From Sphyrna mokarran (Eukaryota), in the NCBI GenBank assembly GCA_024679065.1, contig JAGIQG010000009.1, positions 71,734,001 through 71,798,000 of the forward strand: a stretch of 64,000 bases of DNA. The letters run 5' to 3'. The notes beneath the pieces were generated by a model. That model was not told the origin of the DNA. It saw only the letters and a program-made list of their open reading frames with translations, and did no database searches. The position numbers and the translations under genes were made by a program. This document shows positions 5,376 to 47,489 of the stretch, one piece after another (position 1 is the first letter of the stretch; the number at the start of each line of letters is the position of its first letter).

Positions 5376-5705
5376 AAAGAATGTAGCCAAGAATGCAAGC
5401 TGTGCTGCGATGTCTACAGGAAGCAACAGATGCACATTTACAGCAGATTGTCAAGTTCCTGGCATTTTTTTGAATGCATCCCAGAGTCAGAGCTAATCCA
5501 AAGAAGACAAAATCAAGAAAAGAGTTTCCAATTCCTCTGAATGTGATTGAGTTGTAGAAATTCATGAGTATTGTGAATCAAGTGGGAAAGTTCCTGGCTA
5601 AACTAACTGTTATGATGTAAAGATGCCGGCGTTGGATTGGAGTGGTAAGAACTCAGTAAGAATTTAGCAACACCAATTATTAATCCAACCGATTTATTTG
5701 ATAGT

Positions 5706-5749
5706 AAAATAGCGAGCTTTCAACACTCCCGTGTCTTCATCAGGCAAGT
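5706..5749 (-). ncRNA. Minimal hammerhead ribozyme in PLE pLTR
   Basis: Minus strand CTGATGA-A-GACAC-GGGA-GTGTT-GAAA-GC-TC: intact catalytic core, stem II with GNRA loop, palindromic AGCT stem III; stem I weak. Confidence 0.8.
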
Positions 5750-5960
5750 GCAGTGTACTGGTCTGCAATAGCACACATCAGCACAGACAGTCAGAGATTG
5801 CTGATTAGAATGCGAATCCTTACATCTAACCTGCTATTCAAGTGTTAAAGTGGCTAACAATGTGTGTGAAGGGGATCCTGAGCATTGTTAGAGAGTTGTG
5901 TATTTTCTCCAGACAGCACAGTAAGTGAGGTTTTTTGCTAACCCAGGCAAGTTACGGGGG

Positions 5961-7136
5961 TTACAGATAGTGTGTCATGAAGCCAAGATCCCTGTTAAGA
6001 CCGTCCTCATGTGTGCGGAACTTGGCTATCAGTCTCTGCTCAGCGACTCTGCGCTGTCGTGTATCACGAAAGCCCCCTTGAAGAACATTTACCCGCAGGT
6101 CGGAGGCCGAATGCCCATGACTGCTGAAGTGTTCGCCCACAGGAAGGGAACTGTTTTGCCTGGTGATTGTTGAGCGATGCTCATTCATCCGCTGTCGTAG
6201 TGTCTGCATGGTCTCCCCAATGTACCATGCTTCGGGACATCCTTTCTTGCAACGTATTAGGTAGACAACGTTGGCCGAGTTGCAAGAGTATGTACCGTGT
6301 ACCTGGTGAATGGTATCCTCACGTTTGATGATGTCGTCCATGTCTATGATCTGGCATGTCTTGCAGAGGTTGCTGTGGCAGGGTCGTGTGGTATTGTGGT
6401 CACTGTTCTCCTGAAGGTTGGGTAGTTTGCTGCGAACAATGATCTGTTTGAGGTTGTGCGGTTGTCTGAAAGCAAGAAGTGGGGGGGTGGGGATGGCCCT
6501 AGCGAGATGTTCATCGTCATCAATGATATGTTGAAGACTCCGGAGAAGATGTCGTAGCTTCTCCGCTCCGGGGAAGTACTGGACAACAAAGGGTACTCTG
6601 TCCACCGTGTCCCGTGTTCGTCTTCTGAGGAGATCAGTGCGGTTTATCGTTGTGGCACGTTGGAACTGTCGATCGATGAGTCGAGCGCCATATCCTGTTC
6701 TCACGAGTGCATCCTTCAGTGTCTGGAGGTGTCTGTCACGATCCTCCTCATCTGAGCAAATTCTGTGTATACGGAGGGCTTGTCCATAGGGAATGGCTTC
6801 TTTAACGTGTCTAGGGTGGAAGCTGGAGAAGTGGAGCATTGTGAGGTTGTCTGTCGGTTTTCGGTACAGTGAGGTGCTGAGGTGACCGTCCTTGATGGAG
6901 ATGCGTGTGTCCAAGAATGCAACTGATTCTGGAGAATAGTCCATGGTGAGTCTGATGGTGGGATGGAACTTGTTGATATCATCATACAGTTGTTTCAATG
7001 ATTGTTCACCATGAGTCCAAAGGAAAAAGATGTCATCAATGTATCTAGTATATAACCTTGGTTGGAGATCTTGTGTGGTGAAGAAGTCTTGTTCGAACCT
7101 GTGCATGAAGATGTTGGCATACTGAGGTGCGAATTT
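5961..7136 (-). CDS. Penelope-like RT (C-terminal part)-linker-GIY-YIG endonuclease, 5' truncated
   Basis: Frame open from KFAPQYANIFM; RT motif YTRYIDDIF, FLD, LYRKPT; Cys-rich linker PCHSNLCKTC; endonuclease VVYLIRC...WYIGET...RMNEH...VGEHF; C-terminal GLN. Confidence 0.92.
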   Translation of the reverse strand, partial: KFAPQYANIFMHRFEQDFFTTQDLQPRLYTRYIDDIFFLWTHGEQSLKQLYDDINKFHPTIRLTMDYSPESVAFLDTRISIKDGHLSTSLYRKPTDNLTMLHFSSFHPRHVKEAIPYGQALRIHRICSDEEDRDRHLQTLKDALVRTGYGARLIDRQFQRATTINRTDLLRRRTRDTVDRVPFVVQYFPGAEKLRHLLRSLQHIIDDDEHLARAIPTPPLLAFRQPHNLKQIIVRSKLPNLQENSDHNTTRPCHSNLCKTCQIIDMDDIIKREDTIHQVHGTYSCNSANVVYLIRCKKGCPEAWYIGETMQTLRQRMNEHRSTITRQNSSLPVGEHFSSHGHSASDLRVNVLQGGFRDTRQRRVAEQRLIAKFRTHEDGLNRDLGFMTHYL

Positions 7137-10051
7137 CCCGATGCAATTTTACAACTCATCCGCTTCATCTTGGACCACAATGTCTTCACCTTCAACAATC
7201 AGCTTTTCATCCAGACACACGGAACAGCCATGGGGACCAAATTCGCACCTCAGTATGCCAACATTCTAAACTAACTGTTGTCATTAATGTTGACATTAAG
7301 TCAGCTGTTATGTCAGGACAATACATTGGTGATGGGAGGAAGTACAAGAAAGATCTTTTGAGAAAGTCAAAGAGATGCTGATAATCTTCTTATATTTTAG
7401 CTTGCAATGACCCAGAGACACTCATTATTGCTGCAGAGGCATCTTCTACAGGTTTGTGAGCTGTGTTCTTTCAGACACATACAGGTCAAAAGAGTAGATT
7501 AGTTTACTACACATCCTGTTCATTGATAGAGCCATGTAGTGATGGAGAAAGAAGCATTTGCTTCTACATTTGCTTGTCAGAAGTTTGTAGATAATATTCC
7601 TGGTCTCCGCATCAAGATGACTACAGGCCACAAACCCTTATTCATACTCTTTAATTTTAAAGAATTAGCAAAAATGCCTCACATACACCAATTTAGACTC
7701 AGGATGATAGGGTTTGATGCAAAGACAGAACACATCCTTAGGAAAGTGATAGCTACATCAGATGCTTGTACAGTATCCCAGTGGCAAGCCCTGAACTAAA
7801 TGATATAGTTCTTATTGAAGAGGCAGAAACCTTTGCACCAACAACAATTCTATTAGTAACTCAGCAATGTAGGGTTTCAGAGATGCACAGACATCTGGTG
7901 AAAATGTACCCAGATCAGACTTCTAACCAGGACAGTCAGTTTGGATTTGAGACCAGGTTCACTATGGACAAGTGGTTGAAGAGATTTCACTTCCATGGTC
8001 TTAGCTCATTCAAACAGATAACAGGCCAGTAAGATGGAATGGATATGCACTGATGGCCACAGAAAAGAAACCACCATGTCCCTATGGGAGTTGTTATCTA
8101 CCCAATCGAACCAGCCACTGATTCTGCATTAATCCACCAGTCAAGATGACCACCAATTCCCCTTTTGTCCAGCAGAGTCTGAGAGACCATCTACCAGACC
8201 CAAACACCTGATCCTTTCAAACGTGGAGGACCCATTGCAGTAGACCCTATAATAGGAAGGGAGGAAAATGGGGGTGAGGGAAGGAGAGGAGATATAATAT
8301 AAAAGGGTTAATTATAACTGTGCAATATGCTAATTGAGTACTGTATGTACAATCAGAAGACATTTTGCAATATCACATGGTTTGCCCTTTCTCTGCAACC
8401 TGGTGTAAGGTGTAGTCTGCACAATAAGATGTCTCAATCCAGCTCCTGTTTTCCATACCTTAGCTGACTCAATGAAATATTTTCTATCAGTCTAACATTA
8501 GCAATAATATTTTAGTTTATAGGGCTGAAGGTAATTACAGAAACAAGGATAGGCTAAGGTAATGGAGGAGTTATTGTTGAATAGATCAATATTTTATCTG
8601 AAGGGAAGCTCTTGGGAAGTATTCTACCAGAATGCAAGCTATATGCTAAAGTTAAAGTTTATATATTTCTCACAAGTAGGTTTACATTCACACTGCAATG
8701 AAGTTACTGTGAAAATCCCCAACTGGACTTGAACACAGGAACAACACAGCAGTGGGAAAGTGACCAGCTAACCATGCTAATAGATCGAGATATAAAATCC
8801 ATTGTCTGTCATATTGATACTCGCAATTTGAATCTGCACAGTATCAAAACTGCTTCCTTCCAATCAACTCATTTTATGCTATTGCAGTCATATGAAAGAT
8901 TTATTGCCATGTTAATCTGAATTTGAAATAAGTGTTAATTTCCCCACTCCACATTACTTACATAATCTAAATCAATATTAAAAAAAATTATAGTCAGGCA
9001 ACAGATAACGACACTGTTTGCAGTTTTATGAGGGGTAGCTGCTTTTTGCACTCTGCAGATTGGATTAGGAAGGCTTTGCATATGCAAACCAGGGAAGCTG
9101 TAAAGTATTTGCTGAACTTGCACTGCATTGAGCTGTTCAGCCCTTGTCAAACGCCTATAGAGTAAATTGGTTTCAAGGGCTCACTGCTGACTTGACTCCA
9201 TTCAGCCCTTTAATTAGTGAAGGCCTCCTCCTAACTCAGTGACGAACATAAAATGACTAATGATGTGTGTGTAGGAATGGTCCATGCCCTTCTGGAAAGC
9301 TGTGTATAATTGCCCTTTGCTGCACTCGTGTTCCCTGTTCCACGCTTTAGCCGGACAAGAATCCAAAATAATTCAAAGGCTGACAACATCGGTTTGTAAT
9401 GAATAGTCGGACATGGTAAAACCTGCAGGAGGTTAAAGCAGAAGATGTAAGCACACTCACCAGGTTGAGAAAAGCAATTTGACCCAATGACTTAATCATT
9501 TCGGAGAAGGAAAGGCAATGGGTGATCGGGTGACCTTGTGTGTGCATGTTTCCTTTTAACAACTGAGTAATTGAGGTGCATTTCTTCCTTCCCCAACACC
9601 ATTCACATGACCTCCTATCACATTGTCCTGTTGAGAAATGACAGGCACCACAGGATAGAAAGATAGCAGGTGAAAAAAAACGACTCCGCCAAGCCTGCAA
9701 AATCTTGTTGAGAGGTCCTGAATTAATAATAAATCACCAAGCAATGGAAGGACAAACTCTCCAAAATGGTGGTTTCAGCAAATTATGGTGTTGTATTCCC
9801 TTAGCTGCTGAGCTTTCACTTCACATTGTCCATACTGAAAATAGTTTTAAAAGGCCTGATTTGACATAAAGGGTGATTGGGCTATTGATGTTTAGTTCTT
9901 ACAGTTTGTTATTATCAGTGAATCAGGTTTGCCTGAATCAGTATGTGTCTGTGAGGTAAGTGTTATGTTAACCTTGAAGCAGTGTCTCTTGGGTCTGATA
10001 TTGCAGTTGTAGGGTAACCACAACTTGATTGGGAGTCAGGTCCCATTTACT

Positions 10052-12659: not shown

Positions 12660-14315
12660 TTCAAAAGAACAGTGGCGTTGTTGCAACTGCCTCAGTACTC
12701 AATGCCGACAACTGCCAGTTTCCAGATGCAATTTTACAACTCATCTGCTTCATCCTGGACAACAATAGCTTCACCTTCAAACGACCAGTTCTTCATCCAG
12801 ACAGATGGAACAGCCATGGGGACCAAGTTTTCACCTCAATTTGTCAACATCTTCATGCACAGGCTTGAACAAGACTTCTTCACTGCACAGGACCTTCAAC
12901 CGATGCTATACACTAGATACTGTGATAACATTATCTTCTTTAGACTCATGGTGAACAATCACTGAAATAACTATATGATGACATCAACAAGTTCCATCCC
13001 ACCATCAGACTCATCATGGATTATTCTCCAGATTGGTTGCATTCTTGGACACACCATCTCCATTAAGGACGGTCAACTCAGCACCTCACTGTACTGCAAG
13101 CGCCAAGATAATCTCATGATGCTCCACTTCTCTAGCTTCCACACTAAACACGTTAAAAAATACACCCCCTATGACAAGCCCTCAGTATACATAGGATCTG
13201 CTCAGATGAGGAGGATCGTAACAGACACCTCCAGACACTGAAAGATGCCCTCATAAGAACAGGATATGACGCTCGACTCATCGATTGGCAGTTCTGACAC
13301 ATCACAGCGAAAATCCACACCGACCTCCTCAGAAGACAAACATGGGACATGATGGTCAGAGTACCCTTCGTCATCCAGTACTTCTCTGGAGTGGAGAAGC
13401 TACGACATCTTCTCTGGAGTCTTCAACATTTCATTGATGAAGATGCACACCTCGCCAAAGCCATCCCCACACCCTCACTTCTTGCCTTCAAACAATCGCA
13501 CAACCTCAAACAGACCATTGTCCACAGCAAACTACCCAGCCTTCAGGAGAACAGTGACCACGGCACTACACAACCCTGCCACAGCAACCTCTGCAAGACA
13601 TGCCAGTTCATCGACACAGATACCATCATCTCACATGAGACCATTATCCATCAAGTACATGGCACATATTCTTGCAACTCGACCAACATTGTCTACCTGA
13701 TACACTTCAGGAAAGGATGTCTCAAGGCATGGTACACTGGGGAGACCATGCAGATGCTACGACAACAGATGAATGAACACCACTGGACAATCACTGGGCA
13801 AGACTGTTCCCTTCCTATTGGCGAACACTTTGACGGTCATGGGCATTCGGCCTCTGATCTTCAGGTAAACATTCTCCAAGGTGACCTTCACGACGTGTGA
13901 CAGTGCAGAGTTGCTGAGAAGAAACTGATAGCCAAGTTCCTCACACATGAGGATGGCCTCAATCAGGATCTTGGGTTCATATCTGTAACCCCCATGACTT
14001 GCAACATCTCACTTACTGCCCTGTCAGGAGACAATACACATTTCTTTAACCTATGCTTAATGTTATCTCCACTCACATTGTCTGCACCTTTAAGACTTGA
14101 TTAGCTGTAAAGACATGCATTCTAATCAATATTCTGTAAACTGTATGTGCCTTTATATGGTTTGTTTGTGATCAGAACTTTTACTCACCTGATGAAGGGG
14201 CAAACCCCGAAAACTAATGGCGCTTATTATCAAATAAACCTGTTGGCCTTTAACCTGGCGTTGTGAGACTTCTTACTGTGTTTACCCCCCAGTCCAACGC
14301 TGGCATCTCCATGTC
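12660..14315 (+). mobile_element. Penelope-like element, older frameshifted copy
   Basis: Fragments GTAMGTKFSPQFVNIFMHRLEQDFF, PCHSNLCKTC and IVYLI...WYTGET are collinear with the 5961-7136 ORF; 3' end CCCAGTCCAACGCTGGCATCTCC. Confidence 0.92.
14183..14222 (+). ncRNA. Hammerhead ribozyme motif (partly decayed) in PLE pLTR
   Basis: CTGATGA-A-GGGG-CAAA-CCCC-GAAA; stem III palindrome and stem I mutated. Confidence 0.7.
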
Positions 14316-14319
14316 AGAA

Positions 14320-25110: not shown

Positions 25111-25859
25111 AAGTGGGCCGTTATAACTGGATTAGTCCTCCAAGCACAAAGGGTTTAAAGAAAATGAATGTGACGGGGACCTGTAATTATTGCAAGAGTT
25201 GATGACCACCAGTTAGTGTAATAAACTGTAACAGTTTATGTGCAGGCAGCTAATATATACAGAGTACTTTGATGATGTTAACACTTTCAGCTCTCGGATC
25301 TGTTCTGGCTGCAAAAGCCACATTCTGCACCAAGATCGCTGCGCTCATTCCCCGTTGGGTGATCAGATCACATGACCCTCAGGCTATTTGCCCTTAAAGG
25401 AGCCAGAAATTCCAGGACCAATCCCCTGCTTATGACAAAGAAATCAGCCAGGAGAGAAGGCAAGGAAGCGATCATCTCAGAGGCACTGCCTTCCCAGAGA
25501 GAGAGAGAGAGTGAGATGGTGGTGGACTCAAAGACTTTCAGGATAGACAGGAATATAGTGCACCTTGATCACCCTGCTTCCAGCAACATGTGCCAGTGAA
25601 CCAAAATCATCAGCAATTTCTCCCACGATGTCCAACATTCGCGCCATACATTCCTTAATTATTTCTTATATTGATTTCAGGCAATCATTCAGCTAAATTG
25701 CAACAGTTTGAACACTGATTCCCTGCAGAACATCACTTCCAAGGTGACTGAAATCCATCTGCAATCATTTTCTGCCTAACAGCTTTCAGCTAGTTCTCAA
25801 AATAGTGTGGTAAGTTGCCACAAATACATAAGCCTTCAATCTTGTCAAGAAGCTCCGTG

Positions 25860-26100
25860 TGTGGCACCCTTATCAAAAGTTTTTTTTAGCCTCTGGGCGA
25901 ATACATATCTACTGAATTTCCATTATTGAGTCCTGTGGTGATTTCTTCAAAAAAGACAATTAAGTCACTGAGGCAAAATCTTCTTTCTCTGAATTCATGT
26001 TGGGTTTTTCTGATATGTCCATCTCTGTCAAAGCGTTCACATGCATCTGTAATGATTCCCACAAGCATCTTCCCTGTTACTGACATAAAACTAAAGGATC
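25860..26100 (-). mobile_element. CR1 RT fragment; inverted copy at 27120-27365
   Basis: TQHEF..RRFCLSDLIVFFEEIT..LNNGNSVD (cf. QHGF..GRSCLTNL..FFE). Confidence 0.8.
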
Positions 26101-26117
26101 TGCGGTTCCACAAAGCC

Positions 26118-26610
26118 ATCTTTACAGATGCACCATAGAAAGGATGCTTTCTATTTGTATGACAGCTTGGCATGGCTGCTGCTCAGCCCAAGATTGCAAG
26201 AAACTACAAAGGATCATGAATATAGACCAATCCATCATGCAAACCAGCCTCCCATCCACTGACATTATTTACACTTCTCGCTGCCTCAGAAAATCAGCCA
26301 GCATAATTAAGAACCCCACACACCCTGGACGTACTCTCTTCTATCTTATTCCATCAGGAAAAAGATACAAGAGTCTAAGGTCATGTACCAATCGATTCAA
26401 CAATTTATTCCCCGCTACCGTCAGACTTTTGAATAGACCTACCTCGCATTAAGTTGATCTTTCTCTACACCCTAGCTATGACTGGAACATTGCATTCTGC
26501 ACTGTCTCCTTTCCTTCTGTATGAATGGTATGCTTTGTCTGTATTGCATGCAAGAAACAACACTTTTCACTGCACACTAATACATGTGACAATAATAAAT
26601 CAAATCAAAA
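26118..26610 (+). mobile_element. Rex1/Babar LINE 3' fragment
   Basis: ORF 26144-26452 has the same domain; same (AAATC)n tail. Confidence 0.82.
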
Positions 26611-27761
26611 TCTTAGTTCCTCTTTTAATTATGAGGACTGCATTGAATTTGTTCCAGTCCTGCGTCCTGAACACATGTGAAAGATGTGGAGAAAGGTCTT
26701 GCGAATCACCTCTTGAAAACCCTTCAGGGGATAACATCCAGAATAGCAATAGTAAACATCCCGGTTCTTTCCAAAACTGTATGTTCATCTATTTTAATAT
26801 TTATAGTTTTATTGTCAACAATCCTTAATTATGTCTATTGAACAATAATGCCAAGAATGAAGACTGGTACCGAGTATAATTTATTATGTCCCTCATACCC
26901 TGAGATTCCTTTCAAAGGGCCAATACTCTATATATTTTTTAAAGCATAGAACAAGTAAGCTAATAGCGCACACAAGTATCTCAGTTACCACATTTTGGAT
27001 AATGTTGTTGTTTCATTTCCCACATCAGTTCCCATAGCAATTTTTTTTTCCGTGAACGGGTTCATTGCCTATTGCCATCCTTTCTATGGTGCATCTGTAA
27101 AGATGGCTTTGTGGAACCGCAGATCCTTTCGTTTTATGCCAGTAACAGGGAAGATGCTTGTGGGAATCATTATAGATGCATGTGAACGCTTTGACAGAGA
27201 TGGACATATCAGAAAAACCCAACATGAATTCAGAGAAAGAAGATTTTGCCTCAATGACTTAATTGTCTTTTTTGAAGAAATCACCACAGGACTCAATAAT
27301 GGAAATCCAGTAGATATGTATTCGCCCAGAGGCTAAAAAAAAACTTTTGATAAGGGTGCCACACAAGGAGCTTCTGGAGGCATAAACTCCACATCATGCT
27401 TGTTTGATCAAGAGTCTCTCCCGCTCTTGCCACTTCCCATGTTGGAAGTATTTTGCAAACTCAGCCTGCTTAGCCACGTTACAAATGCACCTTTCTTAGC
27501 CATCAATTCCTAGGATGGGACTCAAACCCAGATTTTCATGTTCAGAGATAGCGACACTATCCGCTACCCCACAGGACTTCCTTCCCACTATATATTTTTG
27601 ACATGTTTTGACAACACCATGATTGTTCACAAAATGAAAAATACATTTCCCAGGTAACAGCGATTACCTACAATCCTTTTTTTGATTAACCTTCTAGCTG
27701 ATGCAAGAATGGCCTTCATTTTTTTTCAGCTGTTCACAATGTCTATCTTTATTTGTTAAAA

Positions 27762-33732: not shown

Positions 33733-34334
33733 TCCATGGATTTAAACAAGGATGATTATGTATTCATGCACTCATCCCAATAGATGTAAACGCTACTCCA
33801 ATCATACAACACACACACACACAAAAAAAAACACACACAGGAGAAATTAGAGAAGATGGCCACTGTTATAAGTACAATACAAAGAAATAATTAACAGGTC
33901 ACATGTTTTTGTGAGTCCAGCAAAGATGGAAAGAAATCATTAGGCTGGTAAGAAAACAGAACCTTGAGGGAAGGACAAAAGAAAAAAATTCCAAGACTTG
34001 CCAATACATCAAAGCATTGCGGCAGAAGCAGAGGCAAACTGTGTCACAGAGCCGGTGACTAAATAGGGTCAGCATAAGCCTGAAACAACAAGCAATATCC
34101 AAGAAGCAGAGTTAAATGCAGGAACAATTCAAGGGTTCATCAGAAGCATGGAATCCATATAAACACTCCTATTTCAGAATGTGGAGAATGCCCAGAAGTG
34201 GTGCAACTTAAGAAGAAGTTCTCCTTATAGAATTATCGTGTTATAGAATTGCTTCAGGATTATATAAGATCAGAAAGGTGAGGTCACCACACTATTGTAT
34301 AAGGTAGGAACTATCACTGACAACATGACAGCAA

Positions 34335-34471
34335 GATGCCGGAGTTGGACTTGGGTAAACACAGTTAGAAGTCTCACAACACCAGATTAAAGTCCAACGG
34401 GTTTATTTGGTAATAAAACCCACAAGCTTTTGGATGCTCTCCTTTGTCAGGTAAATGGAGAGTAATGTAAT
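34335..34471 (-). mobile_element. Solo Penelope pLTR fragment with decayed hammerhead
   Basis: Reverse complement of the 14185-14310 terminus; core CTGACAA...TCC-AAAA consistent with CpG decay; flanking ATGACAGCAA at 34325-34334 and 34472-34481. Confidence 0.8.
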
Positions 34472-35449
34472 ATGACAGCAAAGCAGGGAATGGATGAGAC
34501 ACATCTTCTTATGAAGATGTCAGAAAATCTTTCAAATCTTATTTCAGCATCCACCATTACTTAATAATTGGGAGAACTAAACTTAACAGAAGTAAACAAA
34601 AGCCAGGCAAAATAATTGCAAACCGGTTGGCAGGGAACTGGTTGGGTGCATTGGCTATAAAATTCTCTCTCAGTGTACCCGACAGACACTGGAACATGGC
34701 GACTAGGGAATCTTCACAATAACTTCATTACAGTGCTAATGTAAGTCCACTTGTGACAATAATGAATACATTTTAAACTATGGGATTTTAAAAGTTGAGC
34801 TGATGCATGACAGGATAATTGTAGGAATCTTAGCCGAAGCATTATCAGGTCAGAAAAGGGAGGATTTAACAGTGGCAAAAGAGCAGTGCTGATCGCAAGA
34901 CAATTGAAACTAAGGAAATAGAATCAGGATTTTATTTGTGGGAAAGCTGAAGTCCTGTAGGGAAGATCGAACACCATCGTCTCAAAACCTGTGCACCCTC
35001 TCTCTGTCCTTCAGCCATCCTGCACCTTGGTACTATTTACCAGTTAGAGCAATTCAAACTTTCATTGGATGGTCAAGTGGGTTCATACATTCTGTTCCAT
35101 ACCTAATCAGCACTTAAGTGCTAAACCTGCTGCTTTCTGGTTTACCAGCTCCTGGGCAAGTTCTAAACATGGCAATCAGCAATTCAGGCCAAAATTGTGT
35201 GCTAAGTTCAGACTTTTAAGCATATTATCACAATGCAATTTAGCACTTTTAGACAAAAGAACCTTCTTAACTTGACTTAGCTGCTCATAAAACATTTAAG
35301 ACATTTCTGTAATAAGTAGCAATTAAAGCAGGTGGGCATTGAAGCTGACAAAATTCAGAATCAATTGCAGAGTTGAGGTTTGTGTGATAAAACATCTTCA
35401 GTTCAGTCAGTCAGCACCCCAGATTCAGATTTGCAGAAAAAGGAAAATT

Positions 35450-46320: not shown

Positions 46321-47151
46321 AAGGTGTAGTGGAGTTTGTGGGTGATGGGGGAAGAGCGGGTGAGCGGGAGTGGGGCTTGCGGGGGGGGGGGGGGCAGTGA
46401 TTGAAACAATTATATTCCCTTAAGGACACCACTGAACAGTTTCCTCTTGTCAGCAACGCTCAACACAATTTTGTAACTTTTAATTCAGTGTATTACTGCC
46501 AAAAAGCCAGATTTGTCCTTGTTCACCAGCCGTACTGTAGTGAACTTAAATATTCAATTCAGGGTTGTTTTAAACAATTCAAATGAAAAGAAGTGCAAAA
46601 GCCAGGGTGAAGCTTACTCATTGCATATGTCACAATGGGGTGGCATGACAGTGTTACAAATTGTCAACCTACTTTTCAGGTTGCATTTTTAAAAATGGAA
46701 TTGATTCAAAATGGACTTTGAGGGAGTCACCTTCTCATGTAGATTTCAACTATTCTCTCTTATCTCACAAGGAGACAAAAGGATGCATTCTAAGACATGA
46801 AAGACATTTGGAATTCAATGAGTGCTTGACAAATGTAAATAGATGCCAGTGACTTTGATGTATCTCACACAAAGATGTTGGCCAATAAGAAACTTGAATA
46901 ACCACCACAGCAGGTGGGAAGAGGATTGAGGTTGCAATTAAAATTATCCTTATATGGTTGCATGATACTGCAGCCAGTTTTATTCCCTGTTAAAATATAA
47001 CAAACATTTATAAGCAGACAGAACTCTTATCACTTAGAGAGGGGCCAACAAGAAGTGCCCCGAACTGCTAGACTTGACCAGTTAAAGAAGGGACGCACCA
47101 CAGCTCCTTGAAAGAGAAATAAAGAATCTCTTCTCTGCTTCTTCCCATCTC

Positions 47152-47282
47152 AGTAACAGTCTGGCAACACCAATTTTAAATCCAACCGATTTATTTGATA
47201 GTAAATCTGCGAGCTTTCAACTTTCGTCTTCGTCAGGCAAATGCAGTTTACCCCAGTCCAACGCTGGCATCTCTACATCATG
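47152..47282 (+). mobile_element. Mini Penelope pLTR insertion with inverted 5' part and 12-bp TSD
   Basis: TSD TCTTCCCATCTC at 47140-47151 and 47283-47294; 47152-47244 is antisense pLTR and 47245-47282 is the sense 3' end; closely matches the pLTR at 5612-5752. Confidence 0.88.
47205..47242 (-). ncRNA. Complete minimal type I hammerhead ribozyme
   Basis: ATTTGC-CTGACGA-A-GAC-GAAA-GTT-GAAA-GC-TC-GCAGAT: 6-bp stem I (one G-U), stem II with GNRA loop, AGCT palindromic stem III, CUC cleavage triplet. Confidence 0.82.
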
Positions 47283-47489
47283 TCTTCCCATCTCTCCCAA
47301 CCTGGTTCCATCTCCCTGTTTACCTACTGGGGAGGTGATGGCTTCGTGGTATTATTGCTGGACTATTAATCCAGAAACTCAGCTAATGTTCTGCGGACCT
47401 GGGATTTCAATCCCCGCCATAGCAGATGATGGAATTCAAATTTAATAAAAATATGGAATTTATGGTCATTTGAGGGAATAATGGAAATA

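Follow-up and report, generated by a model that had tools for sequence, protein, structure and literature searches.

The 131-bp insert between two copies of a 12-bp target-site duplication (TSD) at positions 47140–47294 of the window (the whole 64,000-nucleotide stretch of Sphyrna mokarran DNA analyzed here) is real. It is a very short, putatively Neptune-type copy of a Penelope-like element (PLE) with its front part inverted, and reduces the published Penelope-like layout of an inverted pLTR, a one-sided tail and a TSD to an extreme stub. For this insert alone, twin priming of the L1 type and priming by a protein dimer predict the same sequence; only the population of family copies separates them. 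In the reading we favor and consider likely, a symmetric dimer primes both 3′ overhangs at two RNA sites, probably on one RNA, and the host then joins the cDNA ends.

The TSD TCTTCCCATCTC is present at 47140–47151 and at 47283–47294 (both forward strand). No more than 18 of the 63,780 positions in the window have a 12-mer that is repeated 100–200 bp downstream. Element coordinates below are counted from position 0, the last C of CTCTACATC. The left TSD copy is followed by a tail-less inverted pLTR arm (47152–47247, reverse strand, element positions about −36 to −131). The sense arm (47245–47282, forward strand) is the 35–38 nt tail only; it reads AGTTTACCCC...CATCATG, ends with ATG and is joined to the right TSD copy without microhomology (a blunt tail junction). 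When the antisense arm was compared with a colinear young copy (L027), 97 of 99 positions were identical over 47149–47247. The sequence-only reading had identified the antisense pLTR correctly but ended the arm at 47244; its end is at 47247, and AGT (47245–47247, assigned to neither strand) is common to both arms. As that reading also claimed, the last TSD bases, CTC, match the element, being its reverse complement exactly where the inversion starts. This 3-nt microhomology was thus noted, whereas AGT, the second one, located at the inner junction, had been overlooked. For a single junction, 3 nt of microhomology is not unusual by chance alone (expected in about 6% of cases under the null).

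The same site was also found in its empty state. In contigs of four other organisms the two flanks are joined directly and the 12-mer is present once (X15 exactly, X4 and X10 with 1–2 changes; X5 was seen as a joined contig). Therefore, the TSD is real, as originally claimed, and the insertion is younger than the split from these four organisms. Among the joints listed in the one run that contained this locus there was no empty allele. An older repeat (47083–47136) adjoins the target, and several look-alike contigs occur in other organisms.

The parent family is represented in the window by a reference copy at 5961–7148 (reverse strand). This copy includes the C-terminal part of the RT, a CX4CxxC linker (CHSNLCKTC) and a GIY-YIG nuclease with CCHH residues (two Cys within the GIY-YIG core and two His); full-length relatives carry both RT and GIY-YIG. 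The family thus has the attributes of EN+ PLEs: a parental RT/GIY-YIG reading frame with CCHH, a pLTR with a predicted hammerhead, and an inverted 5′ arm together with a tail and a TSD. According to the passages of PMC8557442 on clade features, a CX2-5CxxC linker between RT and nuclease marks the Neptune and Nematis clades. The linker sequence points to Neptune or Nematis and does not tell these two apart. Poseidon (the Penelope/Poseidon clade, without the linker zinc finger) was rejected because the linker motif is present. Exact tail matches of the family in the genome number at least 13,233 (five tail 23-mers match 6,799, 1,807, 1,790, 1,620 and 1,217 times). In three copies (L058, L116 and L124) the RNA runs on past the tail as ATGACTACTATCGACACC; RNA 3′ ends lie scattered between about 0 and +6, a few reaching +20. 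The ATG may be an ORF start.

Several related sequences were noted along the way. A longer copy at 5598–7279 has a 14-bp TSD and the target CTG-17-CAT, and its inverted 5′ piece is RT-coding, not pLTR. It had been taken as a second case of the same kind as the 131-bp insert; since it flips a coding piece at an unrelated point, it belongs to a different class. The window also contains a colinear stub (34326–34480) that belongs to a sister subfamily and whose imperfect 13-bp TSD lies within CTG-17-CAG, an older copy of the same group with a degraded ORF, 79% identical to the 5.6–7.1 kb copy (12713–14316), and an inverted repeat pair of 303 bp, 97% identical and about 930 bp apart (25845–26146 and 27076–27378). 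Protein pieces 75–80% identical to the PLE protein were found within proteins of named sharks, namely inside annotated XRCC5 and PPP1R12A-like isoforms (P0081, P0088 and P0101), and represent either exonisation or an annotation artefact; their occurrence agrees with the attribution of the family to a shark in the sequence-only reading.

The chimera might be a small non-autonomous family moving as a unit, a possibility that the sequence-only reading had raised against itself. Consistent with such a unit, 16 of the 30 best genome matches (the 131-bp insert included) have the same overall layout. However, clear TSDs of 10–15 bp, present in 13 of these 16, are all different, the length ranges from 110 to 152 bp where bounded, and both the outer start and the inner junction vary. 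Two inner junctions, both at 3-nt microhomologies, are each shared by a pair of copies. The exact 22-mer across the junction of the 131-bp insert has 2 occurrences in 2.77 Gb, whose ends differ, and we regard movement as a unit as extremely improbable. A non-LTR retrozyme or SINE-like family was likewise rejected, as there is no constant multi-copy unit and there are no tandem arrays.

Read from its sequence, the inverted arm contains a minimal type-I hammerhead motif (47205–47242, reverse strand). It is composed of helix I (AUUUGC/GCAGAU), the CUGACGA core, an extra A, a 3-bp helix II with one G-U pair and GAAAGCUC, and corresponds to the minimal type without helix III defined in PMC4209133. 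Cleavage is predicted between 47211 and 47210. In the folded arm helices I and II form, with a stability that is not unusual (z 0.88, not significant); an Rfam scan of the 64-kb window returned 0 matches, hammerhead included. The core without helix III and the extra nucleotide before helix II are shared with minimal PLE hammerheads (PMC4209133) and with non-LTR retrozymes as described in parts of 10.64898/2026.07.22.740005. Unlike these retrozymes, the insert has one motif, no dimer partner and no tandem array, and is not self-propagating; the stub is probably inert. The claim that the family scatters tiny hammerhead stubs in both orientations holds, as 53 of the 136 inserts of ≤300 bp in the family sample keep the core motif. 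Single and opposite-strand hammerhead motifs from truncated PLEs have already been reported (PMC4209133), and the layout, like the scattering of hammerheads on opposite strands, has been published (passages of PMC3846280, PMC8557442 and PMC4209133).

To characterize the family, we drew every sample (tails and internal arms) from contig C1, using those places with an intact motif that were listed first. The tail sample, drawn blind to architecture, comprised 130 discovery loci and 128 kept out of 130 replicate loci. Among the 258 pooled tails, 137 are accompanied by an inverted arm that begins close to the tail boundary and 86 are colinear; the others ran off the locus (15), invert elsewhere (11), have a second tail (7) or are complex (2). 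The second start is confined to a narrow window: among 117 inverted copies in which a TSD is present, 94 begin at −40..−31, although part of this clustering is built in, the inverted class being defined by a start between −60 and −18. These 94 starts indicate that the second start is preset. Head-to-head pairs with a tail at both ends are rare (L072, L093, L124, L292 and L337). A TSD was sought in the 7 tail-tail cases and found in none; therefore, they may be separate insertions.

In tail samples L031–L159 and L252–L381, inner ends of arms cluster at −84..−96 (42 of 348 ends, compared with 16 and 20 in the adjoining 13-nt bins), which is at and immediately 3′ of the site (−94) where the hammerhead is predicted to cut. 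A second cluster, at −123..−135 (49 of 348), coincides with the 5′ edge of the hammerhead. In some copies ribozyme-cut RNA may have been the template.

The near-constant start bears directly on twin priming, which the sequence-only reading considered routine for the family. In L1 twin priming the inversion point may lie anywhere along the RNA: the second strand anneals to any stretch of microhomology that it encounters there, and blocks the first RT. The 131-bp insert fits this scheme exactly (CTC pairs with GAG, the arms abut and AGT lies at the inner joint), and so do the pooled microhomology excess described below and the inversions that start elsewhere in 11 of 258 tails. It also shares with L1 twin or dual priming (PMC2837659) two opposed fragments within one TSD, the top-strand 3′ overhang as second primer and joint microhomology. 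Yet inversion, routine as it is, does not follow the L1 style. The family differs by its fixed second start, by arms that usually duplicate sequence rather than delete it and by the involvement of more than half of the copies. The arms of most copies overlap, whereas the L1 model expects internal deletion according to the parts of PMC2837659 covered, and 34 of 94 scorable second-start junctions are blunt. Thus, microhomology does not choose the inversion point. As a family rule L1-type twin priming is largely refuted, and we consider it an improbable explanation, while priming by the second target strand as such, which had also been proposed, is most likely.

The microhomology was compared with permuted targets, as the sequence-only reading had suggested. 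After exclusion of 23 of 117 junctions with unmatched bases, the pooled second-start junctions (n = 94) show an excess, with a mean of 1.34 versus 0.70 nt and ≥2 nt at 41 junctions versus 15.9. The two samples contribute unequally. In the discovery sample the mean was 1.77 nt compared with 0.76 nt for permuted targets (0/3,000; 52 of 60 junctions scorable), whereas the replicate alone gave 0.81 versus 0.61 nt (P = 0.10; 42 of 57 scorable, 23 of these 42 blunt). The discovery-sample strength (1.77–1.83 nt) was thus not reproduced in the replicate, and inspection of the replicate junctions by eye revealed no pipeline error. In a small third set 3 of 12 second-start junctions had ≥2 nt. Microhomology at the tail junction is steadier (1.74 versus 0.69 nt, n = 137). 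Likely, pairing tunes the register and is not required.

Abutting arms place the 131-bp insert at the rare end of the family; normally both arms copy the same stretch of RNA. Among 131 simple two-armed inserts only 8 have arms that abut in roughly this way, with a tailed arm of ≤51 nt (≤40 nt in a single case), and in most copies the tailed arm extends past the second start. The deeper arm is the tail-less one in 63 cases and the tailed one in 32, and in the other 36 the ends lie within 10 nt of each other. Such common end points exceed chance in both samples (21 versus 6.2 and 15 versus 6.8). The two arms also belong to one subfamily (39 of 46 rank within the top quartile of matches). Some palindrome loops are packed with short repeats of neighboring sequence (L056, L082, L088, L121, L128 and L131); loops of repeated copies resemble polymerase-theta (templated) end joining.

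Two other explanations were considered. Self-priming, as proposed in PMC3846280, would produce a fold-back hairpin, most of one arm being later trimmed or deleted. This would suit the many near-perfect palindromes, some with loops of 0–4 nt, and the 36 copies with nearly coincident arm ends. It is at odds with the 63 copies in which the tail-less arm is the longer one (up to 1.7 kb opposite a 29-nt tail in L210), with the existence of solo tail-less copies, and with microhomology and a target motif that look alike at both ends; we hold fold-back to be improbable too. Alternatively, two RNAs might be used, one per cut end, in a kind of dual priming where geometry forces one to be copied from the tail end and the second from the tail boundary. 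Dual priming has already been proposed for L1 (PMC2837659), and it would yield overlapping arms without strand displacement and allow for arm lengths differing by more than 10 nt, as in 95 of the 131 inserts. This alternative overlaps with the dimer model. Same-subfamily arms, the excess of common end points and the mixed pairing described next are nevertheless simpler with one RNA, and two RNAs appear unlikely, though less so than fold-back.

The pairing of arms was analyzed in 100 consecutive matches on contig C1 to an internal 26-mer that has 10,205 matches genome-wide. Of 41 two-armed inserts, 39 combine a tailed with a tail-less arm (two of them, L198 and L217, reassigned by eye), none has two tail-less arms, one pairs a tailed arm with a deep start and one is a complex tail-tail case. 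If each end chose its start independently, about half of the pairs would be expected to be of the same type. The 39 mixed pairs therefore imply that each end takes a different start. The same 100 matches include 24 solo tailed and 17 solo tail-less arms, with a plausible TSD at 6 of the latter; either arm is able to survive alone.

Finally, the family has a palindromic target preference. In 149 reconstructed sites, CTG occurs within 4 nt left of the TSD at 90 and CAG within 4 nt right of it at 97, in each case against a background of about 10%. The complete CTG-N16/17-CAG motif is present at 59 of these sites where about 1 is expected (30 of 78 and 29 of 71 in the two samples; about 0.5 expected per 78), and it is also found at colinear copies. 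The edge of the TSD is most often located 2 nt inward from the motif (40 of 59 on the left, 25 of 59 on the right). TSDs of 12–13 bp are the most frequent (80 of 149), equivalent to a 12–13 bp stagger. Behind tails, CAG is enriched (91 of 130 versus 31). We rejected its interpretation as microhomology to the CTG of the RNA: it lies outside the TSD and is mirrored by CTG on the left, and therefore reflects target preference. The 131-bp insert has one good half-site only, the left CTG at the usual spacing (47135–47137, forward strand, 2 nt outside the TSD); at the right half-site position (47297–47299, forward strand) CCA matches the family CAG poorly. Two further copies in the window, at 5598–7279 (CTG-17-CAT) and near 34326–34480 (CTG-17-CAG), conform to the preference. 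The single half-site of the 131-bp insert and the weak second-start microhomology of the replicate speak against the dimer model, and so do the different clade, the ATT cut preference and the homology-free initiation of the protein studied in vitro (see below).

Published systems provide parts of this picture. In the passages on Pen2a_Av (PMC3846280) and on the general EN+ PLE scheme (PMC8557442), elements have an inverted pLTR, a one-sided 30–40 bp tail and a TSD. The 131-bp insert shares the inverted tail-less 5′ arm, the tail at the opposite end, the TSD and the strong 5′ truncation, and is extreme in that its sense arm is the tail only. The same passages attribute the inversion to self-priming or nuclease resolution, describe simple-repeat or AT-rich targets rather than palindromic CTG/CAG, and call the origin of inverted pLTRs and tails in PLEs open. 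The closest biochemical parallel is the Anolis Poseidon protein (PMC11167929). In the parts of that work covered, this protein, which is predicted to form a dimer, nicks and extends both strands in vitro and uses two RT starts bounding the tail, and the pLTR has a hammerhead; these features have observed or proposed counterparts here. Poseidon is nevertheless of another clade, the present family having the CX4CxxC linker, and the ATT cut preference and lack of homology at initiation are Poseidon's. The same parts do not connect the two starts to the inverted layout. In the largely open-access literature searched, we found neither twin priming of PLEs nor a palindromic CTG/CAG target, nor the strict tailed/tail-less pairing.

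The model of priming at both ends fits the palindromic target and the tailed/tail-less pairing, together with the two in vitro RT starts in the covered parts of PMC11167929. The TSD, the empty site, the arm layout, the fixed start window, the pairing and the target preference being directly observed, the reaction may be pictured from them. A protein dimer would nick both strands 12–13 nt apart, each nick 2 nt 5′ of CAG, to leave two 3′ overhangs. Priming by the bottom strand would take place at the end of the tail and priming by the top strand about 36 nt farther upstream, with 1–4 nt of pairing tuning the register without being needed. Probably one RNA is read by both RTs, and the trailing RT would usually pass the upstream start, displacing the other cDNA and producing palindromes. 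In the 131-bp insert, CTC at the end of the left TSD would be the 3′ end of the top-strand primer. The trailing RT would have stopped at the upstream start, or its product been trimmed to that point; the other RT would have run 96 nt through the hammerhead, and host end-joining would have fused the two cDNA ends at AGT. The sequence is as compatible with two RNAs as with one, and in this single copy also with later deletion of a palindrome.

In its fullest form the proposal is a programmed, two-fold symmetric target-primed reverse transcription (TPRT), to which we give about an even chance. The dimer would sit at CTG-N16/17-CAG and nick 12–13 nt apart, both 3′ ends would engage one RNA at two fixed starts separated by about 36 nt, and a single reaction would give rise to the tail and the inverted pLTR as well as to palindromes and solo tail-less copies. 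If this is true, second-strand priming would be the normal route and ribozyme-cut RNA a frequent template, and routine priming of both target strands at preset RNA sites would set the element apart from the L1/R2 scheme. The value of the finding lies in the family copies, which yield concrete predictions on the target sequence, the stagger, the two start sites and the use of one start per end.
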